The notes: generated from the sequence alone by a model not told the origin. Shown: positions 2,029 to 54,258, numbered from the stretch's first letter. The stretch: 64,000 nucleotides of DNA from Sulfuriferula sp. (GCA_035530335.1 DATKUZ010000028.1:61842-125841), one strand, 5' to 3'. Translations and numbers: made by a program.

Positions 2029-3828
2029 TCAGATCGCAGCAGCGCCCACCCAATCATGCAGCGCCCCAGCTCGGCCTTCCATAAAACGCTCGTACCACAA
2101 CCCATACTGCAACAAGGCCCAGACAAAGGTGGTTTCATCTCCGCTGCGGGATTGACGGTCAATCAGCCGCGCCAATGGCTCGGCGCGCATCGCCTGGAAC
2201 GCCGCATGACCACGACAGGCCACACCTAGCTGCGTCATACGCTCGCCGCGCAGCCATTCCCCGACCGGCACGGTAAAGCCTTTCTTCTTGCTCCATAGGT
2301 GGTCTTTCGGCAAAAACTGCTCGGCCCAGCGGCGCAGGAACACCTTGCCGGTGCGGCCTTCCACCTTGAGCCGGTCCGGCAGCGCCAGACCGAATTCCAC
2401 CACGCGATGATCGAGGAATGGCACGCGCCCTTCCACGCCATGCGCCATCATCATGCGATCGGCCTTCACCAGCAGGTCGTCGGCGAGCCAGGTGGCAATG
2501 TCGGTGTATTGCATCCGCGCCAGATTGCTCCAGCGCGGGTTGGCTTCGTGCCAGGCCTGTATGAATGGCGCGCGGGCGATGCGTTCCGCGTCACCGCCAT
2601 CGAACAGATCCGCAACAGACGCTGATTTTGCCAACCCGCGGGTGCGGTAACCGCCGCTGCCAGGGTGTTGCAGCGCATGCCACAGTCGTTTGATGCGGGG
2701 CGCGCGGTAGCGCCCGTAGCCTGCAAAGACTTCGTCGCCGCCTTCGCCCGACAGCACCACTTTGACGTCCTCGCTGGCGCGCCGGGCGAGCAGCCAGGTG
2801 GGCAGATTGGCGTAGTCGGCCATCAGTTCGCCGGAGACGGCGATGGTGTCGGGCAACACCGCCAGCAGCTCGCGCTCGCTGAGTGCCAGCTCGGTATGCC
2901 GGGTGTGAAACTGTTCGGCAATGCGGCGCGCCGTGGCGAGTTCGTTATTCACCGCCGCGCCGGGAAACCCCACCGAATAAGTATGCAGCGGCTGGTCGCT
3001 GTAACGGCGGATCAGCGCCACCAGCGTGGAAGAATCCACGCCGCCGGAGAGGAACACGCCAAACGGCACGTCGGCGCGCAAATGCTGCTGCACCACGGTC
3101 GCCATCAGATCGTCGAAACGGCGTGCCGCCTCCGCGTGGGAAATTTCCAGCGGCTCGACATCGCTTAATTGCCAGTAGCGGTTGCGCGAGGCAATGCGGC
3201 CGTCGCGCACTTCCACCAGCTCGCCGGGCAATACTTTTTCGACGCCGGCGACGATGCTGCGCGCACCGCTGATGAAATTGCTCTGGAAATATTGCAGCAG
3301 CGCGTCGGGCTCGATGCGTGCGGGTTCGCCTGCCGGCAACAGCGATTTGATTTCGGAGGCAAACACGACACCCGCACTATCCGCCCTGATGAACAGCGGC
3401 TTGATGCCGAGCCGGTCGCGCGCCAGCAACAGGCGGTCGCGGGTCACGTCATACAGCGCAAAGGCAAACATGCCGAACAGGTGGCGGACAAAATCATCGC
3501 CGTACTCGCGGTAGGCGTGGAGGATGGTTTCGCAGTCGGAGTGCGTGCTGAATACATGGCCGCGCGCTTCCAGCGTGGCGCGCAACTCGATGTGGTTGTA
3601 GATTTCGCCGTTGGCCACCACGCACAGCTGGCGATCCCGGGTATACAGCGGCTGGTTGCCGCCAGCCAGATCGATGATGGACAGCCGGGTGTGCACCAGG
3701 CCCAGCCTGGCGGTCTGGTGATAGCCGGTCGCATCCGGTCCGCGGTGGTGCAGCGCGGCAGCCAATTGCGTGAGCGCGGCTTGCGGCACCGCTGCCGATA
3801 CCGAATAAATGCCCGCAATGCCGCACAT
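2029..3828 (-). CDS. asnB: AsnB-family glutamine amidotransferase (asparagine synthase-like), probably polysaccharide-modifying
   Basis: N-terminal MCGIAG, HRGPD, RLSIID, NGEIYN, LSGGVDSS, SGEGGDEVFAGY, E.RVPFLD. Confidence 0.9.
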   Translation of the reverse strand: MCGIAGIYSVSAAVPQAALTQLAAALHHRGPDATGYHQTARLGLVHTRLSIIDLAGGNQPLYTRDRQLCVVANGEIYNHIELRATLEARGHVFSTHSDCETILHAYREYGDDFVRHLFGMFAFALYDVTRDRLLLARDRLGIKPLFIRADSAGVVFASEIKSLLPAGEPARIEPDALLQYFQSNFISGARSIVAGVEKVLPGELVEVRDGRIASRNRYWQLSDVEPLEISHAEAARRFDDLMATVVQQHLRADVPFGVFLSGGVDSSTLVALIRRYSDQPLHTYSVGFPGAAVNNELATARRIAEQFHTRHTELALSERELLAVLPDTIAVSGELMADYANLPTWLLARRASEDVKVVLSGEGGDEVFAGYGRYRAPRIKRLWHALQHPGSGGYRTRGLAKSASVADLFDGGDAERIARAPFIQAWHEANPRWSNLARMQYTDIATWLADDLLVKADRMMMAHGVEGRVPFLDHRVVEFGLALPDRLKVEGRTGKVFLRRWAEQFLPKDHLWSKKKGFTVPVGEWLRGERMTQLGVACRGHAAFQAMRAEPLARLIDRQSRSGDETTFVWALLQYGLWYERFMEGRAGALHDWVGAAAI

Positions 3829-4904
3829 CAGCGCAACGCCGTCAGCAGGTGTTGATACAGCGCAGTATATTCGCCCACGATTCTGGCCTCCGAAAACTGC
3901 TGCTCCAGCTTATGGCGCGCTTGCACGACCAGCCTGGCGCAAGTGGTTTCCTCCCCGATCAGCGCGCGGATCGCGCCGGCCAAGGCATTCGCATCCGCCA
4001 GCGGGGTGAGCACGCCGTCCACGCCATCCTCGATCAGTTCCTGCGCGCCCTGGCTGCACGTGGACACCACCGCCACGCCCTGTGCCCAGGCTTCCAGGAT
4101 CACGTTGCCCAGCGGCTCATGCCGCGATGGGCAGACGAACACATCAGCGCTGCGATATACCGGCGCGGGGTCGGCCTGCCAGCCCAGCCAGTGTACGCGG
4201 TCACTGATGCCCAGCTGCGCCGCGTGCTGGTGCAGTGCAGCGCGCAACGGGCCGTCGCCCGCAATCGCCAGGTGCAATGGGCGGCCTGCCAGCTGCGCAG
4301 GCAGCAGATGAAAAGCGTCGAGCAAATCCGCCATGCCTTTGTTCGGATGCAAACGCCCTACCGCCGACACGACCCAGGCAGCGTGCGGCAAGCCCAGCGT
4401 GCGGCGGTGTATAGCCTGCTCCGCAATACTGAGCGGCGCGCCCGGTTCGACGAAATTGCCGATATGGAACACCCGTTTCGCAGGCAGTCCATGCTGGACA
4501 AGGTAATCGCAAATGCCGCGCGTATTCCCTACCCAGGCGTGGGCGTGGCGGTAGCCTTTGAGGTCGTAATAACCGCCCAGACGCGCCACGTGCACCGGCT
4601 TTTTCCCGAGCTTGAAATGGGTGAGGCGCGTGGCTCGCCCCATGTAGGTCTGCACGATGTCAGCGCCTTCGGCGCGGGCAGTCATGCCGATTTTCCAGCG
4701 TGAAGCCAAGTCCCACACACTGCGCAGCGGCAGATGCCGCTGTTCTACGCTGGCATTCAGTTCGGCATTGATCGCACTGCCCGGCGGCGTGATGCTGGTG
4801 ACACGCTCGCCACGCTGCGCCAGCGCGTTCACCAGGCGCGCATAGAAACGCTCGGCGCCGCCGGATTGCTTGCTGCCGATAATGTGCAGGGAATGGATGT
4901 TCAT
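3828..4904 (-). CDS. Glycosyltransferase family 4
   Basis: GGAER, VGRLHPNKG, FVCPSRHEPLGNVILEAWA motifs. Confidence 0.9.
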   Translation of the reverse strand: MNIHSLHIIGSKQSGGAERFYARLVNALAQRGERVTSITPPGSAINAELNASVEQRHLPLRSVWDLASRWKIGMTARAEGADIVQTYMGRATRLTHFKLGKKPVHVARLGGYYDLKGYRHAHAWVGNTRGICDYLVQHGLPAKRVFHIGNFVEPGAPLSIAEQAIHRRTLGLPHAAWVVSAVGRLHPNKGMADLLDAFHLLPAQLAGRPLHLAIAGDGPLRAALHQHAAQLGISDRVHWLGWQADPAPVYRSADVFVCPSRHEPLGNVILEAWAQGVAVVSTCSQGAQELIEDGVDGVLTPLADANALAGAIRALIGEETTCARLVVQARHKLEQQFSEARIVGEYTALYQHLLTALR

Positions 4905-5812
4905 GGCGAGTTCAGCAGATCGTTCAATTGTTCGGCTACCCGTGCCACATCGAGCCGGGCAAGGTCGTTGCCCGGCGCAATCAGCCAGCGCGCACGGGCG
5001 CCCCAGGGATGATAGCGCAGCGGATCGCCGGGACCGAATACGGTGAGCGTGGGCGTGCCGACCGCGCTGGCGAGGTGGCCAAGGCCGGAGTCATTCCCCA
5101 CAAACACCGTTGCGCGTTGCAACACGGCAGCGGCCTCCAGCAGACTGCTCTTACCCGTTAGATCGAGGCAGGGCAAGGACAGCGTGCGGACGATGTCTGC
5201 CACGCGTGCGCTGTCGGCGGCGCTACCCAGAAAAATCACGGCGTCGAATTGTCCGGCGCAGTGCTGCGCCAGCTCGGCAAAGTGCCGCGCAGGCCAGATT
5301 TTGCCTTCCCAGTTGGCGCCCGGCCCCAGTGCCAGCCAGCGCTTGCCGGGCAGCACTTGCAGCCAGGCTGCCACGCGGGCATGGATCGCCGGCGCTATCC
5401 ATAACTCAGCCGGCGGTGGCTGGGTGGGGCCCAGCAGCGGCGCAATGGCCATGAAATGCCGCACCACGCTGTGGCGTTCGGGCGGGTGCTGTCTGACTTT
5501 ATGCAAGCGCCGTCTGGCCCGTAGCAGCCAGCCCAGGCCATCGGTGCGCAGGTCCACGATGAGGTCGTAGCGCTTGCGTCGCAGTTGCCTGACAAAGGCC
5601 AGCTTGTCGCGCCAGCGCGCATTTTTGTGCTTGAGGATAATCTCGTCCAGTGCATCGAAGTGTTCGAACAGTGCAGCCGAACGCGCATCGGCAACGATGT
5701 CAAAACGCGCCTGGGGATAGCGTGCGCGCAATGCCGCCAGCACCGGGGTGGTCATGACCGCGTCACCGATGTTGCTCAGGGTGACAAACAGAATGTGGCG
5801 CGGATCAGGCAT
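4901..5812 (-). CDS. GT9 LPS heptosyltransferase-family protein
   Basis: LSNIGDAVMTTP, GNDSGLGHLA.AVGTPT.T.FGP. Start trimmed to MPDPRHIL at 5812. Confidence 0.85.
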   Translation of the reverse strand: MPDPRHILFVTLSNIGDAVMTTPVLAALRARYPQARFDIVADARSAALFEHFDALDEIILKHKNARWRDKLAFVRQLRRKRYDLIVDLRTDGLGWLLRARRRLHKVRQHPPERHSVVRHFMAIAPLLGPTQPPPAELWIAPAIHARVAAWLQVLPGKRWLALGPGANWEGKIWPARHFAELAQHCAGQFDAVIFLGSAADSARVADIVRTLSLPCLDLTGKSSLLEAAAVLQRATVFVGNDSGLGHLASAVGTPTLTVFGPGDPLRYHPWGARARWLIAPGNDLARLDVARVAEQLNDLLNSP

Positions 5813-5896
5813 GGGGAAGCGCCTTAAGGAGCCTGCCGGACCTAAAGGAAATCTGCTGCAAATCCGCCTGGCCGGTGCATATTTCACCGCTTTTTT

Positions 5897-5919
5897 GGTC
5901 AATAGAACGACTATTGACC
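5897..5919. promoter_or_regulatory. Perfect 9-bp inverted repeat GGTCAATAG-N5-CTATTGACC, candidate operator
   Basis: Read directly in the ~200-bp gap between the two GT9 genes. No U-tract follows it on either strand. Confidence 0.45.
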
Positions 5920-6010
5920 TGCAAAACCGGCAAAATCTGCCCTCGCCCAGCCGAATTTTGCGAGCATCCGCTGTGCGGATTGCCTGCGTGAATCTTTTCG
6001 CTGCGATTCT

Positions 6011-7114
6011 TCAAGTCCGACAGGCTCCTAGGATTCTGGCCGGCACCCGGACGATGGCCTGCGCCGGCGGCACTGTGAGCAATGCCAGCACCTGCGCCGG
6101 GTGCACCTCGCGCATGCACGAGTGATGCGCGCAATGCTTGCGATAGCAATTGCTGCACGGCAAGTCGGCCTGAATGGCGATGACCTGGTCGCCCAGCGGT
6201 TTGACGCGGGTAGGATCGGTAGGACCGCAAATCACCACTTGCGGACGTTCGCTGCAGGCAGCCAGATGCGAGGTGCCGGTGTCATTGCCGACGATGTAGC
6301 GGGCGTGCTCAGCCAGCGGAATGATGTCCAGCATTTCGGTGGCGCCGCACAGATTCACTGCCGTCGCGCCAATGCGGCTGGCGATGGTATTGCCCAGTTC
6401 GACTTCATCCGGGCCGCCTGCGATGACAACGTGCCTGACCAGTCCCTCCGCCAGCAGCAAGCGGCCCAACTCGGCGTAGTTTTGCTCTCCCCAGCGTTTC
6501 AGGTAACCGCGCGGATGGCAACCAGGGAACAGCAGCGCGTAGCTTCCATCTGCGATGCCGTGTTGGGTAAGCAGATGTTGCACACGCTCACGGTTGCGTT
6601 CCGGCACCGCCAGCACCGGATGGCTGGTAGTTGCGGGAATGCCTGCCAGCTTCAGCGCGGCGCGCATGCGCAACACCGGGTTGATGTCCAGCGGCAGATC
6701 GTCCGGCCCGATGGTGTATGGCCAGAAGCCATGATTGCCGACACGATGGCGGATACCCTTACCGGTGAGTTGCAACGCGCCAAGCAATAAACGGCTGCGG
6801 TCGCTGGTCTGCAGATCGACCACCAGGTCGTAGCGCCCCGCACGTATGCTGCGCAGCCAGTCCAGCATGGCGCCGAGTTTGCCTGATCGGGCACGCGTAT
6901 CCAGCGCAATGATTTTGGCAAAGCGCGTGTCGGCGGCAAACAGCTTCTGATTAGCCGGCAGAGTATTTAGATGTATCTCGGCATGGGGAAAGGCGCGGCG
7001 GATGTCTTCAAACAATGCGCTGGCCATCACCAGATCGCCGAGTGCACTCCATTTGATGACCAGAATGCGCCGGATGGATGAATCAGCTGGCAGACTGACG
7101 GGCGTCGCCGACAA
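6011..7114 (-). CDS. GT9 LPS heptosyltransferase-family protein
   Basis: KWSALGDLVM, GNDTGTSHLAA, GPTDP, and C-terminal CSNC..KHC..HSCM motif. TTG start. Confidence 0.85.
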   Translation of the reverse strand: MSATPVSLPADSSIRRILVIKWSALGDLVMASALFEDIRRAFPHAEIHLNTLPANQKLFAADTRFAKIIALDTRARSGKLGAMLDWLRSIRAGRYDLVVDLQTSDRSRLLLGALQLTGKGIRHRVGNHGFWPYTIGPDDLPLDINPVLRMRAALKLAGIPATTSHPVLAVPERNRERVQHLLTQHGIADGSYALLFPGCHPRGYLKRWGEQNYAELGRLLLAEGLVRHVVIAGGPDEVELGNTIASRIGATAVNLCGATEMLDIIPLAEHARYIVGNDTGTSHLAACSERPQVVICGPTDPTRVKPLGDQVIAIQADLPCSNCYRKHCAHHSCMREVHPAQVLALLTVPPAQAIVRVPARILGACRT

Positions 7115-7774: not shown

Positions 7775-9270
<1,496 letters not shown>

Positions 9271-9275
9271 GTATG

Positions 9276-10031
9276 TTAATGCCGGAGTTTGTAGCCGCTT
9301 TTGAGCAGAATCAGTGTGAGTGCGGATAATGCCACAAAGCACACCCCCACGACCAGCAGGCTCAATTGCGGTGCCACGTCGGCGACGCCGAAGAAACCGT
9401 AGCGGAACCCGTCTATCATGTAGAAAACCGGGTTAAAACGCGACACTGCCTGCCAGAACGCGGGCAACGAGTGGATGGAGTAGAACACGCCCGAGAGAAA
9501 CGTCAGCGGCATGATGAGGAAATTCTGAAACGCGGCCAGCTGGTCGAATTTTTCTGCCCAGATGCCGGCGATGATTCCCAGCGTGCCGAGCATGCCCGTG
9601 CCCAAAAACGCAAAAACAATCAGCCACAGCGGATGCAGAATGGTGAGCCGGGTAAACACCAGCGTCACTACAAATACGCCCAGTCCGACCACCACACCAC
9701 GCGCCACCGAGGCGAGCAGATAGGCGGAAAAAAATTCCAGATAGGACAGCGGCGGCAACAGCATGAAGACGATATTGCCGGTAATCTTGGACTGAATCAG
9801 GCTGGACGAACTGTTGGCAAAGGCATTCTGCAGCATCGACATCATTACCAGGCCGGGTACCAGAAACGCAGTGTAGCGAACGCCCAGATAGACCTGCACG
9901 TGCGCTTCCAGCACGTGTGAAAAAATCAGCAGGTAGAGCAGCGCGGTAATCACCGGCGCCAGCACCGTCTGGAACGACACTTTCCAGAAGCGCAGCAGCT
10001 CCTTGTACAGCAGCGTGTAGAAGCCGATCAT
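9276..10031 (-). CDS. ABC-2 type transporter permease (YadH-like)
   Basis: Six TM segments, PGLVMMS..QNAFAN.SSS, PLTFLSGVFYSI, NPVFYMIDGFRYGF. Confidence 0.9.
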   Translation of the reverse strand: MIGFYTLLYKELLRFWKVSFQTVLAPVITALLYLLIFSHVLEAHVQVYLGVRYTAFLVPGLVMMSMLQNAFANSSSSLIQSKITGNIVFMLLPPLSYLEFFSAYLLASVARGVVVGLGVFVVTLVFTRLTILHPLWLIVFAFLGTGMLGTLGIIAGIWAEKFDQLAAFQNFLIMPLTFLSGVFYSIHSLPAFWQAVSRFNPVFYMIDGFRYGFFGVADVAPQLSLLVVGVCFVALSALTLILLKSGYKLRH

Positions 10032-10936
10032 CAGGATGCCCCCATGACCTGGACGAAGACATCTTCCAGATCGGGCTGGGTGAGTTCCATATCCTGAATG
10101 CAGACACCCGCCTCGCGCAACTGGGCCAGCACGCCTTCCATATCTGCGTAATGATCCAGCGCCAGCACATGCAAACCATCAATATGGCTGACCACGCGCG
10201 CGGCCAGTCCGGCAGGCAGGGTGTCGGGCGTAATCCTCAGGCACAGATGGCGCTCGGCAATGCTTTTGAGCAGGTTGGCGGTACTGTCCAGCGCCACGAC
10301 ACGCCCCTGCTTGAGCATGGCGACACGATTGCACAGGGCTTGCGCCTCTTCCAGATAATGCGTGGTGAGGACGATGGTGTGGCCGCCCTCATTGAGCTTG
10401 CGGATGAATGCCCACAGCGACTGACGCAATTCCACGTCCACTCCGGCGGTAGGCTCGTCGAGGATGATCACCGGCGGCTTGTGCACCAGCGCCTGGGCTA
10501 CCAGCACGCGCCGTTTCATGCCGCCGGAGAGGGTACGCATGTTGCGGTCAGCCTTGTCGAGCAGATCGAGATTGGCCATGACCTCGTCGATCCAGTCGTC
10601 GTTGCGGCGCAGGCCAAAATAGCCGGATTGAATGCGCAGCCCTTCGCGCACGGTGAAAAACGGGTCGTACACCAGTTCCTGCGGCACCACGCCGAGCGCC
10701 TTGCGCGTGGCGCGGTAGTCGCGCACCACGTCGTGCCCCATCACTGCCGCGCTGCCGCTGCTGGCGCGGGTGAGTCCGGCGAGTATGCTGATGAGCGTGG
10801 TTTTGCCCGCACCGTTAGGACCCAGCAGTGCAAAAAACTCGCCCTGCTGCACCTCCAGATCAACCCCCTGCAACGCATGCAGGCTGCCGAAATGCTTGTG
10901 CAGATGGCGCACCAGAATGGCAGGCGTGGCGCCCAT
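10031..10936 (-). CDS. ABC transporter ATP-binding protein (YadG-like)
   Basis: Walker A GPNGAGKTT, LSGGMKRR, ILDEPT, H-loop TTHY. Confidence 0.92.
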   Translation of the reverse strand: MGATPAILVRHLHKHFGSLHALQGVDLEVQQGEFFALLGPNGAGKTTLISILAGLTRASSGSAAVMGHDVVRDYRATRKALGVVPQELVYDPFFTVREGLRIQSGYFGLRRNDDWIDEVMANLDLLDKADRNMRTLSGGMKRRVLVAQALVHKPPVIILDEPTAGVDVELRQSLWAFIRKLNEGGHTIVLTTHYLEEAQALCNRVAMLKQGRVVALDSTANLLKSIAERHLCLRITPDTLPAGLAARVVSHIDGLHVLALDHYADMEGVLAQLREAGVCIQDMELTQPDLEDVFVQVMGAS

Positions 10937-11215
10937 TTATTGCGGAAGCAGATCCAGCACGCCATAAAGCGTGGCGAGGCTTTTCAGATTGGCCGGCAGA
11001 TTGATGCAACGCAGTGCAACCCCGGCGCGTTCGGCCTCACGCCGGCATTCAATCATCAGACCAAGCACAGCCGAGTCCATCTCATTCACCTGGTGAAAAT
11101 CGATGATGCGCGCACCCTGCCTGATGGCATCGGTGCAGGTCTTGAGCACGCCGGCGGCGGTAGACATGGTCACCGTCGCACCGACGACGCAGATAGCGTT
11201 TTCGGCTGCAGTCAT
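10937..11215 (-). CDS. mlaB: STAS-domain Mla subunit
   Basis: 92 aa with DF.QV..MDSA.L.L motif and L..LYG. Lies in the mla operon. Confidence 0.8.
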   Translation of the reverse strand: MTAAENAICVVGATVTMSTAAGVLKTCTDAIRQGARIIDFHQVNEMDSAVLGLMIECRREAERAGVALRCINLPANLKSLATLYGVLDLLPQ

Positions 11216-11922
11216 TTGTGTGTGCTATGCGACTTTTTGGTTGGCGCAGCCGCCGGTGCTTCCTGCTGGTTGGCTCCATTCTGCTGATTGCGATTGGCGA
11301 GCGTGCGAATCAGTCCATCAATGCCGGACTGGCGGATTTCGCTGCCAAACGAACTGCGATAGTTGGTCACCAGGCTCACGCCATCAATCGCCACATCGTA
11401 GACTTTCCAGCCGAAAGGTGTTTTTTCCATGCTGTAGTCGATCGGAATGGGCTGTGCGCCGGGCTGCTTTACCTGGGTCTGCACGGTCACGTCGGTCGCA
11501 CCTGGCGTCATGCTGAACGGTTTGAATTCGATTGTCTGGTTATTGAAAGCAGTCAGCGAGCTGGCATAGGTACGCACCAGCAGGGTACGAAATTCCTGAA
11601 TCAGCGACTGGCGCTGGGCTGGCGTGGCGCGCGGCCAATACTTGCCCACCGCAAGCATGGTCATATGGTTGAAGTCGAAATTGGGCAGGATCTTGGCGTC
11701 CACCAGTTCGTATACCTTGTGGGAGTCACCGGATTGAATGTCCTTGTCCTTTTTAAGGATGGCAACCACTTCCTGGGTAGTGGTCCTGACCAGCACATCG
11801 GGCGCCACATCGGCGGCCGCAGCCTGTCCCTGTGCGACAACCAGCAGGGTCAGCGCAGCCAGGCTGGCGAGCAGCCATTTTGTTGCATGCGTGAATGATT
11901 TCAACCGGGGTTCATGCGTCAT
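11212..11922 (-). CDS. mlaC: Periplasmic phospholipid shuttle MlaC/Ttg2D
   Basis: Signal peptide, FDF..MT.LAVG.YW, LVRTY, WKVYDV.IDGVSLVTNYRSSF. Confidence 0.92.
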   Translation of the reverse strand: MTHEPRLKSFTHATKWLLASLAALTLLVVAQGQAAAADVAPDVLVRTTTQEVVAILKKDKDIQSGDSHKVYELVDAKILPNFDFNHMTMLAVGKYWPRATPAQRQSLIQEFRTLLVRTYASSLTAFNNQTIEFKPFSMTPGATDVTVQTQVKQPGAQPIPIDYSMEKTPFGWKVYDVAIDGVSLVTNYRSSFGSEIRQSGIDGLIRTLANRNQQNGANQQEAPAAAPTKKSHSTHK

Positions 11923-11948
11923 GATTTGTATCGACCTTTAGGGGTTGT

Positions 11949-13316
11949 TTATTTGAGTTCACCGACAGCGCGGTACATTTGGGCAACATCCATGTTGTAA
12001 TCGTTCACCGTTTTCAGGTACTCGGCCTGGGTAAGCGCATAGGTTTTCAGTGCCTCGGCGACTTTATCGGCCTGCTCCAGACCGGCGTTGAAATCCGCCA
12101 GCGAGGAAATCATCCAGCGCCGCGCCGCCCTGGCGCCCTCGGCCAGATCGCGCTGCGCGTCGTAGTTGGCCCGAACCTGCTGATACGCCGCGGACACCTG
12201 GAACGGAATCCCGGCCTGCGCGTACTGGTTTTTATAATTGAGCGCTTCCAGCTCGGCCTGCTCCTGCGCCACCTTGGCCGGTACCACGTCAAATTCCATG
12301 TCCCATTTCACCCCGACCACCGGGGTCAGGCCGGCGTTGTTGAAGGGGTCATAGACATAGGGATTGTTGAGGCGATCGCGGCGCGATGCGTAATTTGCCG
12401 TGCCTACGATACCCGCATAGACGTCCGGATATTTTTCCGATTTTTTCGCTGCCACCAGCGCACGGCGGGCACGCAGCCCCGCTTCCAGTTGCGCCATTTC
12501 CGGGCGATCCAGCAGCGCACGCGACTGCAAATCTGCCAGGTTATCCTTGGGCAACGCCACCGGCGTCAGGCTGTCGTCGGCCACCTGCAGATCGGCATCC
12601 ATGCCCACGCCGGTGAGCACCTTCAGGCCATCCAGGCTGATTTTTTCGATGGCTTTGGCCTGGCTCATGTATTTGCCCAGCATGCCGCGCGCCGCCTGCA
12701 GCGCATACAAATCCGATTGCTTGGATTCGCCATTGTCGTCCTTCAGGTTGTGGCTAACGCGGTTCACCGCACTGTCCAGCCGGCTCTGCACGTCTTCCAG
12801 CAGGCGGCGCGAATCCCGCGCGGCAAGATAGCCATAGTAAGCGCGCTTGACGTCCAGCACCGTGTCCGCCTTGCTGATGCGCACATCGCCGCGCTTGACA
12901 TCGATATTGCCCTGCGCAGCCTCGCTGTAATGCTGGATTTTTCCAAACGTAAACAGCGGCTTGATCAGCGCAACCTGCAACGAGGTCCAGTCGGACAGGC
13001 CACCCGGAAACGGACCGTCGGTACGCGGCGTCGTACCGGAGGTGGCGCCGCCCTGATAAAAGCCACCCTTCACCTCGGGTGCCAGCCCCACAAACAGATT
13101 GGCGTTAACACGCCAGCCATCCTTGGCCTGGGCTTGTTCGAGCAGGGCGCGCGCCGATTCCACCAGCTGCTCGCGCTCCTTGACCCGCGGATCGGCGTTC
13201 AGACTCATTTGCACAGCCTGCTGCAGGTTAACGGTTTGCGCCAAGCCCGTTGTTGGCAACGCAACTACCAGCACCAGCATGAAGCGGGATAATGCACTCA
13301 TTTTTTTCATTTTCAT
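11949..13316 (-). CDS. TolC/outer-membrane efflux protein (OEP) family channel
   Basis: Signal peptide, two OEP repeats (PLFTFGK..., DVKRAYY..L.A; RPE..Q...., P.V...), amphipathic helices. Its start overlaps the mlaD stop (ATGA). Confidence 0.85.
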   Translation of the reverse strand: MKMKKMSALSRFMLVLVVALPTTGLAQTVNLQQAVQMSLNADPRVKEREQLVESARALLEQAQAKDGWRVNANLFVGLAPEVKGGFYQGGATSGTTPRTDGPFPGGLSDWTSLQVALIKPLFTFGKIQHYSEAAQGNIDVKRGDVRISKADTVLDVKRAYYGYLAARDSRRLLEDVQSRLDSAVNRVSHNLKDDNGESKQSDLYALQAARGMLGKYMSQAKAIEKISLDGLKVLTGVGMDADLQVADDSLTPVALPKDNLADLQSRALLDRPEMAQLEAGLRARRALVAAKKSEKYPDVYAGIVGTANYASRRDRLNNPYVYDPFNNAGLTPVVGVKWDMEFDVVPAKVAQEQAELEALNYKNQYAQAGIPFQVSAAYQQVRANYDAQRDLAEGARAARRWMISSLADFNAGLEQADKVAEALKTYALTQAEYLKTVNDYNMDVAQMYRAVGELK

Positions 13317-13831
13317 TGTTGAATTCCTTGTGTTGCGGGAGCGCCTGCCGGGGCAGGTGCCGGGGGTTTGGCCGATCCACCCGCAGCCTTGTCGTAAAGA
13401 AATTGGCCAATCAGATTTTCCAGCACCACAGCCGACTGGGTGATCTGGATTTTATCGCCATTGGCCAGTTTTTTGTCACTGCCGCCTGCATCCAGCCCGA
13501 TGTATTGTTCCCCCAGCAGCCCGGAAGTCAGAATCGCCGCGATGGTGTCCTTGGGGAAAGTGTAGCGTTTGTCCAGACTCAGGGTAACTGTTGCCTCGTA
13601 AGTCTTGTCGTCAAACGCGATCTGGCTCACCCGCCCAACCACCACGCCCGCGCTTTTTACCGCTGCACGTGGCTTGAGCCCGCCGATATTGTCGAACTGT
13701 GCCGTTACAGTATAGCCGTCGGACATACTAAAACTGCTCATGTTCCCCACCTTGAACGCTAGTACCAGCAAAGCCGCCAGCCCCGCCGCCACAAATACGC
13801 CCACCCACAAATCGAGTGCGGTTCTTTCCAT
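13313..13831 (-). CDS. mlaD: MCE-domain protein MlaD
   Basis: VGVFV.AG, F.NIGGLK.RA.V..AGV.VGRV, I.TSGLLGEQYI. Confidence 0.95.
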   Translation of the reverse strand: MERTALDLWVGVFVAAGLAALLVLAFKVGNMSSFSMSDGYTVTAQFDNIGGLKPRAAVKSAGVVVGRVSQIAFDDKTYEATVTLSLDKRYTFPKDTIAAILTSGLLGEQYIGLDAGGSDKKLANGDKIQITQSAVVLENLIGQFLYDKAAGGSAKPPAPAPAGAPATQGIQQ

Positions 13832-13835
13832 TTGC

Positions 13836-14630
13836 CTATACCCCTTTGAACATGAATGCGGTGAGCACGAAATCCAGCGCCAGAATCGCCAGCGAGGAAG
13901 TCACCACCGTACGCGTGGTCGCGCGCGACACGCCCTCTGCCGTGGGCGGCGCGTCGTAACCTTCAAATAACGCAATTGCCGTAACCGCGAAACCAAACAC
14001 AACACTTTTGATGACGCCGTTAATTACATCGTGGCGCACATCCACCGCCGCCTGCATCTGCGACCAGAATGAGCCCTCGTCAACGCCGATCAGCACCACG
14101 CCCACCAGATAGCCGCCGAACACACCCATGGCAGAAAAAATGGCCGCCAGCAGAGGCATCGAGATCACGCCTGCCCAAAAACGCGGCGCCACTACGCGAG
14201 CGATGGGATCCACAGCCATCATTTCCAGCGCATTTAATTGTTCAGTCGCTTTCATCAGGCCGATTTCTGCGGTAATCGCGGAGCCGGCGCGACTGGCAAA
14301 TAACAGTGCCGCCACTACCGGCCCCAGTTCGCGCACCAGTGACAATGCAACCAGTACCCCCAGAGCCTGTTCCGAGCCATAGGTTTTCAAAGTCTCGTAA
14401 CCCTGCAAGCCCAGCACCATGCCGACGAATAAGCCGGAAACCACTATAATGATGAGCGACAGCACCCCACTGGAATAAATTTCGCGGATAACCAGATTGA
14501 AACGTGCAAAGCTCGTTCCCGAGCGCATCAGCGTCAGCGCCAGAAAACGTGATGCATAACCCAAACGCCAGATGCTATCGATGACCCGATGGCCGATTCT
14601 GGAAAACAAACGCCCACCCAGACGCATCAT
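13836..14630 (-). CDS. mlaE: Mla permease
   Basis: [36 protein letters not shown]. Confidence 0.95.
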
Positions 14631-15436
14631 TTGTGCGCCCCTAAACCCAGGTCTTTGCCGTAGTCTGCGGCAGGGTAATGGAACGGCACCGGGCCATCCT
14701 CCTCGCCATGCACAAACTGGTGCACGAAAGGCAAGCCTGATGCACGAATCTGATCCGGTGTGCCTTCAGCCTCGATCGCCCCCTCGGAGACGAAATAGAC
14801 ATAATCGACAATCTTGAGGGATTCATGCACGTCGTGGGTGACTACAATAGAGGTCAGCCCGAGCGTATCGGTCAACCTGCGGATCAAATTGCCCACCACA
14901 CCCAGCGAAATCGGATCAAGTCCGGCGAACGGTTCATCGTACATGATCAGCATCGGGTCGAGCGCCACCGCCCGCGCCAGTGCGACGCGCCGTGCCATGC
15001 CGCCGGACAGCTCGGCGGGCATCAGCTTGCTGGCACCGCGCAAGCCCACTGCGTGCAGTTTCATCAACACCAGATCACGGATGACGGCTTCAGACAAATC
15101 GGTATGTTCACGCATCTGGAAAGCGACGTTGTCGAACACCGACATGTCGGTAAACAGCGCACCAAACTGAAATAGCATGCCCATTTTGCGGCGCAACTGA
15201 TACAGCGCCTGCTGGTCAAGATCATGCACCAGCTGCCCAGCCACACTCACCTCGCCCTTGCTGGGGCGCAGTTGCCCACCGATCAGTCGTAACAGCGTGG
15301 TTTTACCACAACCACTGCCACCCATGATGGCGATCACCTTGCCACGCGGCGCAACAAGATTGATCCCTTGCAGAATCGGGCGCTTGCCATAGGCGAAAGA
15401 AAGATTACGAATTTCGACCAGATTATCTGTCGACAC
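14627..15436 (-). CDS. mlaF: Mla ATP-binding subunit
   Basis: [43 protein letters not shown]. Confidence 0.95.
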
Positions 15437-15494
15437 GGCTACGCCTTAAATTTAAGTTGAACGGATTTTATAACGGCTGGACGGCGCGAACAAT

Positions 15495-15980
15495 TTAATA
15501 ACCCAGAATTTCCAGCAATGTGACGGCCTGTTGCAAATCGGCCACAGCCTGCGTCTGACTGATCAGGTAACACGGCGTTCCAGGCGTTTGTACACGTTGC
15601 TGAATTTGCGTCGACAGCGCGCGCCAATCCGGCACGGCGGGCAGCCACATACAAGACGCCTGCAAGGCTGCCGCGGTGTCAGCCAGGCCGGTGCGCGGCG
15701 CGAGTATCGCCAGGCGCACGCGATCGGCTTCCGACAAGCTGGCTGGCGTCTCCAGCACAAAACGAAAACGCGGCAGGGTGTCGTCCAGCCACTGCACCAG
15801 CGTTGCCTCGGGCTGTTGCGCCCAGGCACTGTAGCCGAGATAACAGCAAGTAAAGAAATTATTGTAGTAAGTAAGCCGCCAGTCCGCCGGAAGATCGTCC
15901 GGGTAGAAGTTCCCCGCCCAGTCCTCGTGCTCCCAGCCGCGCGCGCCCACATAACACGTATAGTTTGGCGAATTCGTCAT
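15495..15980 (-). CDS. Short DUF72-like protein
   Basis: VG..GW.H..W.G.FYP.DLP..WRL.YY matches the DUF72 N-terminus. About 161 aa from MTNSPNY. Confidence 0.6.
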   Translation of the reverse strand: MTNSPNYTCYVGARGWEHEDWAGNFYPDDLPADWRLTYYNNFFTCCYLGYSAWAQQPEATLVQWLDDTLPRFRFVLETPASLSEADRVRLAILAPRTGLADTAAALQASCMWLPAVPDWRALSTQIQQRVQTPGTPCYLISQTQAVADLQQAVTLLEILGY

Positions 15981-16021
15981 GATACTGGCATTATAACAGC
16001 CCCCTGTGACCCGCTCCGGCC

Positions 16022-17074
16022 ATGCAATTCGACCTGTTTTACGAGATTTCCCAGCCACCGCACCTGGCACGCAGCGAGGCGCAGGCATTCGCCGATACCC
16101 TGGCCGAAATCGAGCTGGCCGACCGTCTCGGTTTCGGTTGTGCGTGGCTGGTCGAGCATCATTTCATGCGCGGCTACTCGCATTCTTCCAAGCCTGATCT
16201 GGTGCTGGCCGCGGCCAGCCAGCGCACCCGGCGCATCCGCCTGGGCTTGAGTGTGGTACCGCTGCCCTACCACCACCCCGTGCATGTTGCCGAGCGCGTT
16301 GCCACCCTGGACATCCTCACCGGCGGCCGCCTGGAACTGGGCATCGGACGCGGCTTCTCGCCCCAGGAGTATGGTGTGTTCGGTGCCGCCATGAGCGACA
16401 GCCGCAGCCGCACGGCGGAGTCGCTGGCGATCCTGCGCCAGTCATTCTTGCGCCGCCCGGTCACCTTTCATGGCGAACATTATCAACTGGATGCGCTGGA
16501 TATCCTGCCCTACCCGGTGCAATCCCCGCATCCGCCGCTGTGGACCGCAGCAGTCAGCCCGGACACTTTCACCTGGGCGGCGCAGCAACAGCTCGGAATG
16601 CTGGCCGGCCCGTTCAAGCCGTGGATGATGGTGAAACACGACATCCGCAACTATCTCGACAGCGCGGCTGCCGCGCCTGCGCCGCGTGCCGGCATGACCG
16701 TCGGCATCGTCTGCCTGCCCGACGGCAAGCGTGCCCGCGAGCTCGCCAAACCGGCGCTGACGTGGTTTTACAATGCGCTCTTCGCGACCACGCTGCCGGT
16801 GCTGGAAAAACTCTACCCCAGTTATGAGCACTTTCACGATCTAGGACGCTTTCGCAGCCTGATGAAGCTCGGCATCAATCTCAAGCTGCTGGAAACATTC
16901 GGCATGGCCGTCGTGGGCACGCCCGCAGAATGTATCGAGAAACTGCAAAAATATCGTGAGGCCGGGGTGACCAACCTGCTCTGCGCGGTAGGTGCCGGCG
17001 CGCTCCCGACCGAGGTCATCCAGGAATCCATGCACTGCATTGCAGAGGACGTCATGCCTGCTTTGCGCATCTGA
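16022..17074 (+). CDS. Luciferase-like (LLM-class) flavin-dependent monooxygenase
   Basis: ADRLGF..AWLVEHHF, AA..QRT.RIRLG, HP..VAE..ATLD.L..GRL.LGIGRG. Confidence 0.88.
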   Translation: MQFDLFYEISQPPHLARSEAQAFADTLAEIELADRLGFGCAWLVEHHFMRGYSHSSKPDLVLAAASQRTRRIRLGLSVVPLPYHHPVHVAERVATLDILTGGRLELGIGRGFSPQEYGVFGAAMSDSRSRTAESLAILRQSFLRRPVTFHGEHYQLDALDILPYPVQSPHPPLWTAAVSPDTFTWAAQQQLGMLAGPFKPWMMVKHDIRNYLDSAAAAPAPRAGMTVGIVCLPDGKRARELAKPALTWFYNALFATTLPVLEKLYPSYEHFHDLGRFRSLMKLGINLKLLETFGMAVVGTPAECIEKLQKYREAGVTNLLCAVGAGALPTEVIQESMHCIAEDVMPALRI

Positions 17075-31208: not shown

Positions 31209-31862
31209 CTACCACAGCGTGACGGTGGCGACGCCTATCGCCAGCAGCAAACATAGATAATCGGTCCAACCCATTGGCAGATCCGGCAACTCGATGTGCG
31301 ATTGCACATTGGGCAACGCCTCATTTAACTGCAGTGCGCCAAGACGCTGCTTCATGTTTATTTTTTGCTGATTCCCCAAGGCGGCCTCGGCATAGTGCAG
31401 GGTAAGCCAGAGACGCACGGCGATGCGCTCCACATCCACTCCCAGCCACTGCAGCGGATGCAATATCCGGTATATGCCTAATAGCAAAGCGGTGCGCGGA
31501 ATGCGCATCATCAGGATAGAAAGGGCGGCAAGCAGCAATGTCATGCGCGCGATACGCAGCACACCGTGCTGCAGACCTTGCACGCTCGGACTGAGACTGC
31601 CCAGCATGCTGGACACATGTTCACCCGGCAGCGTGTAGGCATAGATCATCAGCAACGAGAGCAGCAGCCAGCGCGTGCGACGCAAGTAGCGAAAAAACTG
31701 CGTTAACGTGGCGCCCTGCAGCCAGGGCAGCAATGCCAGAGCAGCCAGGCCAAGCGCTGGCGGACGGACGAATTCAAGCCACACCACAAAAAACAGCCAC
31801 AGCACGATGGCTGTGGCTGGATGCAGCTTGCAACGAATGGATAAAATGGAACTGTGCATCAA
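31209..31862 (-). CDS. EcfT/CbiQ-like ECF transporter T-component
   Basis: Hydrophobic, RR.RWL..S, YAYT.PG, RIAVRL.LTL.YAE. Confidence 0.6.
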   Translation of the reverse strand: MMHSSILSIRCKLHPATAIVLWLFFVVWLEFVRPPALGLAALALLPWLQGATLTQFFRYLRRTRWLLLSLLMIYAYTLPGEHVSSMLGSLSPSVQGLQHGVLRIARMTLLLAALSILMMRIPRTALLLGIYRILHPLQWLGVDVERIAVRLWLTLHYAEAALGNQQKINMKQRLGALQLNEALPNVQSHIELPDLPMGWTDYLCLLLAIGVATVTLW

Positions 31863-34579
31863 CCCATCTGGGCAAGGAGCATCTGTGCGTCCTCTTGTTG
31901 CGTTGCGTTACCTTCCTGTATTACTTCCTCCAGAATTTCGCGGGCATTTTCCTTGTCACCCATTTCCTGGTAGACGCGTGCCAGATCAAGCTTGGTTGCC
32001 ACTTCCTGGAAGGCTTCATCAGTCTCGCCCGCAGCTTGGCTCATGTCACCGATATCGTTCAGATCCAGACTGATATCCGAAAAATCCAGGGCCGGTGCTG
32101 TATCGGAGGCTGTCATCGGTGCCTCCGTTTCGGGCAGGTCGAAATCAAAATCCAGCCCGGTATCGTCCGCCGGTCCTGATTCAAGCGATGCAGCGGCCGT
32201 GTTGCTGTCCAAATCATGCGCAGCGAAGTCAAGATCCGGGAAACTCAGTTCATCATGGGCAAAAGTGCCTGAGCGTGTATCGTCGTGCGCATCCGGCGCC
32301 AACATCGAATCCAGCTCGTGGAATACGGAATCCTCGTGCGCAGCATGTTTTTCGACCGCATCTGCGATGATGCCTTGCTCTGCACCGGACGTGAAATCCA
32401 GGCCGCTGTCCACCGGAGTATCTGAAGTGTGCTCATCCTGATGCTCAGCTTCTGCAGTGCTTGGCAGGTGTGAAAAATCCAGTGTGGCATCACCTTGAGA
32501 CGCCTCGCTTGCAGCTTGCGCAGGGTCAGCCTCACCCGTATCTGTGCGTCTGCGCGAAGCCAGGGCAACCGTCGCCATGCCTGCTGCTGCAACCACTGCA
32601 GCAGCTGCGCCGTCCGTACCCGCCGGTTGTTGTGCTGCGGCAACCTGGTTGCCTTCGCCAGTGTTGTTATACAGCGGATTATTGGGATCCAGCCTGTGTC
32701 CGAGTTCGGCCGCCTTAGCCCACACTGGTGTCATCTCGCCACCCAGTGCCGCATACAGCTCGGTGGCCACAGATTCAAACGCGGGCAGGTTTTTGCGCGC
32801 TGCGTAAATTTCCAGCAGCTTGAGATGAATTTCGTGCCGCCCCGGATCTTTGGTCAGCGCCTCCTTGAGGATTTCCTCGGCCTGTGCGTCACGTCCGTAG
32901 GCCATGTAAACCTCGGCTTCGGCAATCGGATCCACGTCATGGGTGTCAATTGTGCCCAGGCCCGCCTGACTGAAGTCAGTCAGGAACGAAGTGTTGTTGG
33001 TATTCACCGCGCCGCCACCCTGGGTGCCGTAGACGGTATTGGCCCTGATGTCAGTGCCGGCCATGATGCTGTCTTCAAAATTCGACAGCCCATTGCGCCG
33101 CCGTTTGCCATGCATCATGAACGCGAGCAATGCGAAAAGCAGGGCTGCCAATGCTGCACCGCCTAGATAGATCGGATTGATACTGTCATACCAGTGGCCA
33201 CCTTCATCTGCCGGTGCTGGTGTAGGTGCAACCGGCTTGGGTACCGCAACAGGCTGTACCGGCGGACTTGCAGGCTTGGCGGATGCTGTCGGAGCGGCAG
33301 GCGCTGCTGCCTTGGCGCTCGCGGCTTGCGTGGCATCAGGGGTAGCCTTGGTGGCATTCTTTTGTAACTCTGCCAGCGCTTGGCTCTTGATATCCAGCAG
33401 CCGTTGCATGTCCTGGATACTTTTCTCCAATGCAGCCACACGGTTGTTGGCATCCTGCAAGGCTTTTTGCTTGGCGACAGCATCTTCCTGGAGCGCGTTC
33501 AGTTTATCCTGTGTAGCCGCTGCCAGCTTGGCATCCTTGCCGGCCGCCGACTGTTTGCCGGTGGCAGGAGCTTCGCCTTTAGACAATGTAAGCACGTCCT
33601 TGCCCGCTTGTGTTTGAGCAGCTTTGTCTTCCACCTTCGGCATGATCTTGCCAACTGCCTGCGCGGATTTCTCCGGCATTGCCGTTGACTTGACGACTTC
33701 TCCAGCCAGTTTCTGGCGATAGCTTTGCCAGTCAGCGGATTGCAGCTTGATGTCGCGCGCGGCTTCTGCCGCAGGAATTGCAGCAGCCTGCTCCTTGCTC
33801 GGCAGCTTGAGAATCTTGCCGGTTTTGAGCCGGTTCATATTGTTGCCATCGAACGCCTGGCGATTTTCGCGGAACAAACCAACCAGCATCTGTTCGAGGT
33901 TGACCCCCTCTGGCCTGGTTTGGCCAGCGATGGCGGCCAGCGTGTCACCCCGTTTGACCGGGCCATAAGTTTGCGCAGTGGATTTTTCAGCGTTGTCGGT
34001 AGGGGCAGTCTCGACTGTTTTGGTCGATTTGCGCGTCGCTGTAGCTCCGCCTGCCGTCCTGGATTCCGCCGACGGTTTTGACTCTGCTGCGGATTTTCTG
34101 GGTTTGGCACCCGCATTACCGTTGGCGGTGGCTGGCGTGACCTCCAATGGCGGTACCGCTGTTTGCATCGCAGCTGCGCCTGGTGGATCAAGCAAAACCG
34201 TATATTCGCGTACCATTCGGCCGGTCGCCCAGTCGAGTTCGATCAACATGTCCAGAAAAGGATCGTTGATCGGCTTGCTCGAGGTGATTTTCAACACAGC
34301 GCGGCCATCGGGTTTTTTGTCAACGACAAATTTGAGGCTGTATAACACCGCAACGGGGTCAATTTTGGCTTCGCGGAACGCATCATTACCGGCGAGACGC
34401 GCGGACAGTGCCGCCAGTTCAGCCTTGTCCTCGGCCAGCAATTCAATTTCTGCATTGAGAGGCTGCCCCAGCGCCGACTTGACGGAAAGTTTCCCCAGTC
34501 CCGCTGCATGTCCAGCCAACGGCAGCAGCATCAGCACGCCTGCCGACAGATAACTCGCAATGATCTTTTTTCGCATCAT
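31859..34579 (-). CDS. fimV: FimV/HubP polar landmark protein
   Basis: GLGKL.V.SALGQPL.AEI, LysM (YGPVKRGDTL..IA), TM segment, DPIAEAEVYMAYGR TPR, acidic region, C-terminal TKLDLAR.Y..MGD...AR.ILEEV. Confidence 0.92.
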   Translation of the reverse strand: MMRKKIIASYLSAGVLMLLPLAGHAAGLGKLSVKSALGQPLNAEIELLAEDKAELAALSARLAGNDAFREAKIDPVAVLYSLKFVVDKKPDGRAVLKITSSKPINDPFLDMLIELDWATGRMVREYTVLLDPPGAAAMQTAVPPLEVTPATANGNAGAKPRKSAAESKPSAESRTAGGATATRKSTKTVETAPTDNAEKSTAQTYGPVKRGDTLAAIAGQTRPEGVNLEQMLVGLFRENRQAFDGNNMNRLKTGKILKLPSKEQAAAIPAAEAARDIKLQSADWQSYRQKLAGEVVKSTAMPEKSAQAVGKIMPKVEDKAAQTQAGKDVLTLSKGEAPATGKQSAAGKDAKLAAATQDKLNALQEDAVAKQKALQDANNRVAALEKSIQDMQRLLDIKSQALAELQKNATKATPDATQAASAKAAAPAAPTASAKPASPPVQPVAVPKPVAPTPAPADEGGHWYDSINPIYLGGAALAALLFALLAFMMHGKRRRNGLSNFEDSIMAGTDIRANTVYGTQGGGAVNTNNTSFLTDFSQAGLGTIDTHDVDPIAEAEVYMAYGRDAQAEEILKEALTKDPGRHEIHLKLLEIYAARKNLPAFESVATELYAALGGEMTPVWAKAAELGHRLDPNNPLYNNTGEGNQVAAAQQPAGTDGAAAAVVAAAGMATVALASRRRTDTGEADPAQAASEASQGDATLDFSHLPSTAEAEHQDEHTSDTPVDSGLDFTSGAEQGIIADAVEKHAAHEDSVFHELDSMLAPDAHDDTRSGTFAHDELSFPDLDFAAHDLDSNTAAASLESGPADDTGLDFDFDLPETEAPMTASDTAPALDFSDISLDLNDIGDMSQAAGETDEAFQEVATKLDLARVYQEMGDKENAREILEEVIQEGNATQQEDAQMLLAQMG

Positions 34580-45302: not shown

Positions 45303-45350
45303 TCGGTCTGTCAGCTTTGCATACAGACCGCAAACAGCCGGGATTAACAC

Positions 45351-45551
45351 ATGCCCCAGAACCCGGTAACGCCATCTCCCCAGCTCCGGCTGCTCACCTG
45401 TCCGGTATGCGGCGGTACTGTGGCACGCATACACCGCAGACTGATCGACCGTTTAATCAGTCTGGTGGTTTTGCGTCATCGTTACCGCTGTCTCGCCATG
45501 GGGTGTGGCTGGGAGGGAAATCTTCCCCCGATGAAAAAATTCAGGAAATAA
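45351..45551 (+). CDS. Small putative zinc-ribbon protein (66 aa)
   Basis: CPVCGG...RIHRR..DR...RYRC...GCGWEG: four Cys in two pairs. Confidence 0.55.
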   Translation: MPQNPVTPSPQLRLLTCPVCGGTVARIHRRLIDRLISLVVLRHRYRCLAMGCGWEGNLPPMKKFRK

Positions 45552-45694
45552 CTGCAGGCGTTAAGATCGCCTACGCTATATATCCTTTCTGGCTTACATT
45601 GCGAGCAATGAAGATTGCTGCAAAATCAGTGACGGGAATTGGCTGGAAGCCTGTAGGACTCGATACATATACCAATCAAAAGGTGAGTTCGCTC

Positions 45695-54205: not shown

Positions 54206-54258
54206 GTTCTGCGCTGCAGAATTACATGCGCTCATACAGGGCTCTCCACCACACATGC

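Follow-up and report, generated by a model that had tools for sequence, protein, structure and literature searches.

The window analysed here – a 64,000-nucleotide stretch of DNA from a Sulfuriferula species, numbered throughout from its first letter – contains an operon for the Mla lipid-trafficking pathway, in which a gene for a 455-residue protein of the OEP/TolC family of outer-membrane factors (11949..13316, minus strand) sits between mlaD and mlaC. Comparison of sequences and gene neighbourhoods suggests that this protein, referred to below as the OEP, is probably the outer-membrane component of Mla lipid trafficking, acting in place of the MlaA lipoprotein/porin complex. With less assurance, though still on the side of acceptance, we propose that it typifies a third, ancient Mla architecture – a dedicated TolC-family channel with an MlaC shuttle – beside the two others, MlaA–porin with an MlaC shuttle and the long bridging MlaD. 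A TolC-fold protein would here work free of any adaptor and hand lipids directly to, or take them from, an MlaC-family carrier; the OEP/MlaC pair would be joined with MlaFED (for phospholipid) or with HpnN (for hopanoids), would be found in Pseudomonadota, Desulfobacterota and Nitrospirota, and would exclude MlaA.

The occurrence of the arrangement in at least three phyla points to an undescribed link of lipid transport to the outer membrane, and OEP-type Mla is probably a new, widespread and old variant of the pathway. No description of a TolC-type or other outer-membrane factor as a partner for Mla or MlaC was found in the open-access full-text literature searched, and a Chem Rev efflux review, the YbjP–TolC preprint and the Ekiert 2016 preprint have no bearing on one. 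Public annotation labels the OEP relatives no more closely than as ‘TolC family protein’ or ‘RND transporter’.

A TolC-family gene within the mla operon

The original prediction gave the gene order mlaF–mlaE–mlaD–OEP–mlaC–mlaB, with the start of the OEP gene overlapping the mlaD stop codon, and open reading frames, Pfam and NCBIfam all bear this order out. The six genes lie on the minus strand. The first, mlaF (14627..15436, GTG start), encodes the 269-residue ABC ATPase of the inner-membrane complex (PF00005, 103 bits; best NCBIfam model NF008809 for MlaF, 364 bits against a cut-off of 441) and is followed by mlaE (13836..14630), for the 264-residue permease (PF02405, 257 bits; NF033619, 427 bits, cut-off 315). 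The product of mlaD (13313..13831) is a short, single-MCE protein of 172 residues with a Pro/Ala-rich C-terminal tail (TIGR04430, 199 bits, cut-off 135), with which E. coli MlaD aligns end to end (140 bits, residues 6–167). After the OEP gene, whose product matches PF02321 with two repeats (100 bits), come mlaC (11212..11922), encoding the periplasmic lipid-binding carrier of 236 residues including its signal peptide (PF05494, 204 bits, cut-off 26), and mlaB (10937..11215), encoding a 92-residue STAS-domain accessory protein (PF13466, 44.6 bits, cut-off 29.2; NF033618 for MlaB, 30.6 bits, cut-off 90). The best NCBIfam scores of MlaF and MlaB thus lie under the respective cut-offs; their more tentative assignment draws on the Pfam models ABC_tran and STAS_2, which both pass, and on operon position, which fits.

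Start and stop codons overlap as ATGA at mlaF/mlaE, at mlaD/OEP – as had been claimed – and at mlaC/mlaB, and an AAGGA Shine–Dalgarno sequence lies 8 nucleotides 5′ of the OEP ATG. The OEP gene, as read from the sequence, is embedded between mlaD and mlaC and is probably translationally coupled to mlaD. A promoter and terminator scan of the locus gave counts at shuffle expectation, and no convincing internal terminator was found in it. Sequence runs flagged ‘RNA?’ (X14–X18, window 9000–16200) were considered as transcripts and rejected, being contigs of 100–180 kb with 90–95% identity; they are silent on co-transcription because they look like genomic DNA of related strains. Immediately 5′ of mlaF there is a further open reading frame of 161–197 codons (15495–16088, minus strand) whose product no Pfam model matches; two further assemblies of the locus (L174, L175) have it annotated as a 161-residue gene.

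Two absences noted in the original prediction also hold. A tblastn search with E. coli MlaA as query found no vacJ/mlaA match in the 64 kb (best E 0.15), and the annotation shows no membrane-fusion (HlyD/MFP) or RND gene in the 10 kb on either side of the OEP gene, nor do the 20 other largest open reading frames of the window include one, so that no RND or ABC adaptor accompanies the channel gene.

The OEP itself begins with a signal peptide ending in TTGLA, ahead of QT, and has no lipobox Cys. Its scores on the curated NCBIfam models are low (TolC, TIGR01844, 33 bits against a cut-off of 225; NodT, TIGR01845, 31 bits against 210), and the best solved relative of the family profile in the PDB is CusC (E 2e-4). 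An AlphaFold2 model of the monomer (pLDDT 87, pTM 0.76) has the topology of a TolC protomer, with strands at residues 69–80, 107–122, 298–310 and 328–337 and long helices at 126–193, 200–235, 344–410 and 416–451. The Foldseek matches of this model are 39 chains of TolC-family outer-membrane factors, among them OprN, OprM, TolC, CusC, SilC, CmeC, MtrE and VceC, with TM scores of 0.70–0.77 at 12–17% identity. On the predicted structure, the 455-residue protein is a genuine but very divergent member of the family, since it combines the TolC fold and the OEP repeats yet scores low on the family models. The sole unusual features noted in it are R313 and D323 in extracellular loop 2, which are invariant across phyla – uncommon for residues of surface loops – and an IKPLxTFGK motif at the junction of barrel and helices.

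Conservation of the arrangement and absence of MlaA

The best named match to the OEP is a protein of Sulfuriferula plumbiphila (91% identity), and Thiobacillus proteins follow at 65–68%. A genome scan restricted to one genome per species, with an alignment of close relatives as query, returned 342 relatives, of which the best 80 loci, all at 62% identity or above, were examined and annotated with the window proteins; they belong to Sulfuriferula, Thiobacillus (including T. denitrificans DSM 12475 and T. thioparus DSM 505), Sulfuricella and Sulfurimicrobium. The gene for the OEP has mlaD directly 5′ and mlaC directly 3′ in 77 of the 80, the remaining three ending at contig edges, and no differing neighbour or MlaA-like open reading frame was seen within 8 kb among these best 80 of the 342. 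On such counts, the mlaD–OEP–mlaC arrangement is conserved far beyond chance.

An exhaustive search of representatives clustered at 50% identity showed a tight clade of OEP relatives at 40–55% identity, followed by a broad group at about 30%. Within the tight clade, P0122 (locus L082, 46% identity) lies in the order mlaE–D–OEP–mlaC–STAS–ABC2–ABC2–bolA; P0123 (L083/84, 43%) in mlaFED–OEP–mlaC–STAS–murA–hisGD adjoining kdsDC–lptCAB–rpoN, with neither ABC-2 nor bolA; and for P0126 (L085, 40%) the six genes are placed between recQ/desaturase and purL. At larger distances, the order is mlaE–D–OEP–mlaC for P0139 (L087, 32%) and mlaE–F–D–OEP–mlaC for P0141 (L088, 30%), Desulfobacca acetoxidans (Desulfobacterota; L089) and Ca. 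Manganitrophus noduliformans (Nitrospirota; L090), the last two from the group at about 30%. Look-ups at L082–L090 found no membrane-fusion or RND gene beside any of these distant relatives. In Ca. Manganitrophus, STAS-domain and patatin-like phospholipase genes (L090:3095-4260) stand about 2 kb 5′ of mlaEFD–OEP–mlaC, on the same strand.

Sequence divergence follows the same course across the operon. The OEP and MlaC are, respectively, 43–46% and 44–47% identical to their proteobacterial relatives – 43% and 47% in the case of L083 – and about 30% and 31% identical to those of Desulfobacca, and the identities of MlaC, MlaD, MlaE, MlaF and the OEP to other OEP-type clusters drop in parallel. Judging by these figures, the OEP has diverged together with the rest of the operon, rather than having been inserted recently as an efflux gene. 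The original prediction had named a lack of conserved linkage between this TolC clade and mla genes as a finding that would tell against it; the linkage is instead kept down to about 30% identity and across phyla, and extends to a fusion of OEP and MlaC described below.

The distant loci also bear on the genes downstream of the operon. In the window, mlaB is followed on the same strand by genes – identified from open reading frames, Pfam and NCBIfam, and taken as context rather than as part of the system – for an ABC-2 ATPase (10031..10936), an ABC-2 permease (9276..10031), a BolA/IbaG-like protein (9028..9342) and murA (7775..9028), and this block is kept in all 80 close loci. One alternative is that the adjacent ABC-2 exporter (10936..9276) relies on the OEP at the outer membrane; the two exporter genes come directly after mlaB in the window and in 80 of 80 close loci. 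The pair is missing, however, beside the OEP in L083, L085 and L087–L090 as well as in metagenome loci, and no adaptor gene is present nearby; the idea was rejected on account of this absence next to distant OEP-type clusters. The bolA gene is likewise not found beside L083, L085 or L088–L090, the L087 contig stopping before that position. Since both are missing beside distant OEP-type clusters, the ABC-2 and bolA genes are not obligate partners of the OEP. Further along, 3′ of murA–hisG, the window carries genes of lipopolysaccharide-core type (2029–7114, minus strand): two family-9 heptosyltransferases, a GT4 glycosyltransferase and an asparagine synthase.

A published survey allows the absence of MlaA to be followed beyond the window. 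Grasekamp et al. (2023; PMC10665443) searched 1083 genomes with hidden Markov models for MlaA to MlaF, and the entries cited here come from part of their Supplementary Data 1. For T. denitrificans ATCC 25259, the table gives zero MlaA (PF04333) genome-wide, together with MlaB AAZ97848, MlaC AAZ97849, MlaD AAZ97851, MlaE AAZ97852 and MlaF AAZ97853; the accession gap of one between MlaC and MlaD is the position of the OEP, in agreement with locus L035. For D. acetoxidans, it gives zero MlaA with MlaE AEB09359, MlaF AEB09360, MlaD AEB09361 and MlaC AEB09363 (PMC10665443), and the gap of one between MlaD and MlaC again corresponds to the OEP, in agreement with L089. The rows of the table considered here hold no other betaproteobacterium without MlaA. 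That betaproteobacterial mlaA commonly stands between mlaD and mlaC, as the original prediction stated, agrees with the accession order D–A–C–B of seven genera in these rows – Rhodoferax, Sutterella, Accumulibacter, Dechloromonas, Aromatoleum, Azoarcus and Hydrogenophilus – and in Gallionella, Nitrosomonas and Ferrovum the accessions place mlaA elsewhere (PMC10665443). Because the accession order there is D–A–C, the OEP gene can be said, as far as these entries go, to occupy the slot held by mlaA in many related operons. Among the roughly 170 loci fetched in the present work, none has an MlaA-like open reading frame.

These data speak to a variant of the previous alternative, in which the OEP would be a porin-like scaffold for an MlaA encoded elsewhere. 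Its attraction is that E. coli MlaA requires a trimeric barrel partner, OmpC or OmpF (PMC10665443); against it stands the genome-wide absence of MlaA from the table entries for T. denitrificans and D. acetoxidans. In either form, ABC-2 partner or scaffold, we regard this explanation as extremely improbable.

One tie between OEP and MlaC is a fusion. In P0166, of 677 residues, some 55 residues rich in Pro, Gly and Ala link an OEP domain with an MlaC domain; the protein is identical in three independent metagenome assemblies (L091:1696-3729, L092:1726-3759 and L093:1403-3436) and always lies 3′ of mlaE–mlaD, with no separate mlaC. The long, flexible linker fits a carrier tethered at the periplasmic side of the OEP.

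The breadth of the family was gauged with a profile of the distant group, which retrieved at least 540 metagenome relatives; 80 returned loci were classified with hidden Markov models built from the distant loci. Mla linkage is present in 42 of the 80, 30 of which carry all five genes, whilst five have an MlaC-like gene with no mlaD and 33 have neither (‘orphans’). In a neighbour-joining tree, the 33 orphan OEPs form a single derived clade nested within the Mla-linked sequences, and mla linkage is therefore taken as the older state. The orphan clade (L099, L113, L139, L160 and about 29 more) has the OEP gene between a divergently transcribed NAD-dependent epimerase gene and a downstream cdsA; upstream on the opposite strand lie genes for an ABC-2 exporter and a GldG-like auxiliary protein. 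L115, one of the Mla-linked loci, has a gene for a PAS histidine kinase next after the OEP, on the opposite strand.

The orphans belong to the case for reading the OEP as an ordinary efflux or type I secretion factor – one that, like E. coli TolC, would have its adaptor and pump encoded at unlinked sites and be merely co-located and co-transcribed with mla. The canonical fold with its two OEP repeats suits such a role, the genes for TolC proteins frequently lie apart from those for the pumps they serve, and all 33 members of the orphan clade stand alone beside cdsA and the epimerase gene. Yet this clade is derived, nested within OEPs linked to Mla, and the OEP falls far below the curated TolC and NodT cut-offs. 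Moreover, the OEP gene stays between mlaD and mlaC amid unrelated flanks, from beta- and gammaproteobacteria to Desulfobacterota and Nitrospirota, the OEP is fused to MlaC in one lineage, and – to the extent that the survey entries cover it – its presence coincides with loss of MlaA. It is the conserved position, the fusion and the MlaA loss that make an efflux duct unlikely, and we give this explanation only a very small chance of being right. The reading of the OEP as outer-membrane partner of Mla, with the TolC-like barrel at the heart of a variant lipid system as the original prediction had it, is supported as far as comparison of sequences can carry it.

Mechanism, direction and cargo

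In the mechanism that we propose, the OEP would form a trimer with a 12-stranded barrel in the outer membrane and an α-helical tube reaching some 100 Å into the periplasm. Soluble MlaC would dock on the periplasmic part of the OEP, exchange lipid with it and ferry that lipid, in one direction or the other, between the OEP and the hexameric ring that MlaD forms in MlaFEDB; a membrane-fusion adaptor would be unneeded because MlaC itself bridges the gap. As for direction and substrate, we infer that the system most likely does what canonical Mla does, namely take phospholipid out of the outer membrane in the retrograde direction and so keep that membrane asymmetric, since its inner-membrane complex and canonical MlaFEDB are close orthologues.

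Several observations weigh against an OEP that takes the place of MlaA in such a cycle. All support for physical contact between OEP and MlaC is genomic context, and five Mla-linked metagenome loci (L105, L107, L109, L115 and L123) have mlaE–F–D–OEP with no adjacent mlaC. Genome-wide absence of MlaA, in the survey entries used, covers two other genomes, and for Sulfuriferula the absence applies to the 64 kb window. The protein itself offers little that is distinctive: read on sequence and model, the barrel strands show the ordinary alternation, with polar residues facing the lumen, and nothing in the OEP sequence accounts for a route for lipid into or out of a TolC-type channel. A comparison of conserved columns between Mla-linked and orphan OEPs singled out no MlaC-docking surface; such a surface is not separable in this way because nearly all the family-wide invariant residues are common to the orphan clade.

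Relatives of the OEP associated with hopanoid genes complicate the question of direction. A sister clade of five loci lacking mlaD has the order OEP, HpnN-like MMPL transporter, HpnM/MlaC-like protein and HpnI (seen at L171:4965-9835, L172:4737-10945 and L126:4737-9122); the transporter scores 553 bits on TIGR03480, which is below the cut-off, and HpnI passes its own (325 bits, cut-off 310). L171 and L172, from the sister clade, are the sole loci with the HpnN/HpnM features of hopanoid transport; the window lacks them, its HpnM score being under the cut-off and no MMPL or hpn gene lying nearby. Class-III aminotransferase and radical-SAM genes are also seen near the cluster in L126. Two further fusions involve the same company of proteins: P0248 (L177:85-3149) joins an HpnL-like LPG_synthase_TM domain to an OEP and is followed, with a 4-nucleotide overlap, by an MlaC-family gene, and P0205 (L176:1-3694) joins an MMPL domain to an OEP. 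Each is known from one short contig, so that an assembly or gene-calling artefact is possible, and the contigs of P0205 and of P0137, another relative, are too short to reveal neighbours. Judged by gene neighbourhoods across both kinds of locus, the constant partner of the OEP is the MlaC-family carrier; next to HpnN, the OEP/MlaC-like pair can probably serve outward delivery as well.

These relatives supply much of the case for the main alternative to retrograde transport, namely export of a special lipid. The parts would be the same and the direction opposite, or the cargo different, with MlaFEDB–MlaC–OEP sending to the outer leaflet or out of the cell, by way of the TolC-like channel, a specialised lipid: a hopanoid, another non-phospholipid, or phospholipid destined for vesicles or surfaces. 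To our knowledge, every characterised TolC-family protein is an exit duct; the sister clade stands beside the hopanoid exporter HpnN, the MlaC-like HpnM and HpnI; the MMPL–OEP and HpnL-like–OEP fusions exist; and the HpnM model of NCBIfam gives MlaC of the window a higher score (104 bits) than does the equivalog for E. coli MlaC (88 bits). Both scores, however, are under their cut-offs (160 and 195, respectively), and the closest solved relative of this MlaC is the phospholipid-binding, MlaC-like protein of Ralstonia (2QGU, 159 bits), whose structure was determined with lipid bound. The operon, too, occupies the conserved housekeeping position of mla, upstream of murA and hisG; MlaE and MlaD score above the cut-offs of the NCBIfam models for ‘lipid asymmetry maintenance’; and no MMPL, hpn or shc gene is seen among the window open reading frames examined. 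We therefore consider export unlikely, albeit a good deal less so than a role in efflux. The suggestion in the original prediction that the system might handle a different lipid or work in export gains some support, because the sister clade pairs the OEP with HpnN and HpnM; retrograde phospholipid removal remains the reading that we prefer for the window.

Relation to known systems and significance

Compared with the canonical Mla pathway of E. coli and Acinetobacter (MlaA–OmpC/F, MlaC and MlaFEDB), the window shares orthologous MlaE, short MlaD and MlaC, probable orthologues of MlaF and MlaB, the shuttle role of a soluble MlaC and an operon placed 5′ of murA. It differs in being without an MlaA lipoprotein and in having, in the mlaA slot, a TolC-fold channel that bears no lipid anchor.

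A tolC gene near mla genes has been reported before. In Veillonella parvula and other Negativicutes, tolC and tamB follow mlaEFD, and TolC was given no role in Mla (PMC10665443). The two arrangements are alike in having a tolC homologue right after the genes for the inner-membrane components and in lacking MlaA. However, Veillonella MlaD is a protein of 419 residues with a helical extension and a C-terminal β-barrel, and there is no MlaC (PMC10665443), whereas the window has an MlaD of 172 residues and an MlaC encoded beside the OEP.

For hopanoids, a route from HpnN through HpnM to HpnS has been proposed, HpnS being MlaA-like and situated at the outer membrane (bioRxiv 2025.07.29.667474, PMC12324291). 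It resembles the systems discussed here in combining an MlaC-family carrier, HpnM, with an outer-membrane receiver, a role for which L171, L172 and L126 have an OEP. It is unlike the window, which has an MlaFED ABC/MCE engine and no HpnN, and the preprint mentions no OEP or TolC partner. In both Mla and Hpn systems, an MlaA-like lipoprotein and an OEP thus appear to be alternative outer-membrane partners of an MlaC-family carrier.

With the TolC, OprM and CusC factors of tripartite efflux and type I secretion, the OEP has in common the fold, the internal repeat and an α-tube built on helices of 67–68 residues. In contrast to them, it has no linked adaptor or RND, ABC or MFS pump, shares 12–17% identity with them, scores below the family cut-offs and carries the invariant loop-2 residues R313 and D323.

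The TGD system of chloroplasts and cyanobacteria provides a parallel of another kind. TGD1, TGD2 and TGD3 are homologues of MlaE, MlaD and MlaF and work with the outer-envelope barrel TGD4, so that, as in OEP-type Mla, an Mla-type ABC/MCE engine is matched with a barrel that is not MlaA. TGD4, however, is an LptD-like barrel rather than a TolC fold, nor does the TGD system include an MlaC shuttle.

Elsewhere in the window, three regions attracted attention in their own right. Between 41600 and 48000, the G+C content falls from about 0.60 to 0.49–0.54 over short open reading frames and a gene for a 629-residue protein with two PLD domains (45242–47131); this region may be an acquired island. 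Two adjacent genes of the semialdehyde-dehydrogenase family (358 and 370 residues; 34662–36796, minus strand) lie beside a FimV-like gene (31859–34579) and leucine biosynthesis genes; they overlap by about 55 nucleotides as listed, and the start of the downstream one may be later. A protein of 1218 residues (50801–54457, minus strand) with DUF4838, CBM_4_9 and GH67 N-terminal domains looks like a secreted carbohydrate-active enzyme, unusual for a chemolithotroph.

The steps by which lipids enter and leave the outer membrane are still among the most poorly understood in the Gram-negative envelope, and the direction of Mla transport is itself disputed. If the OEP acts as we propose, it would offer a second, structurally unrelated solution to set against MlaA, and a TolC-family protein whose partner is a soluble carrier, in place of adaptor and pump, would widen the known range of that family. 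It would also account for the completion of the pathway in organisms that have MlaC and lack MlaA, which are visible in published surveys and pass uncommented there. Judging by its ties to hopanoid clusters, the OEP may be an outer-membrane station of general use to lipid carriers and, as Thiobacillus denitrificans can be cultured, the idea should be directly testable.

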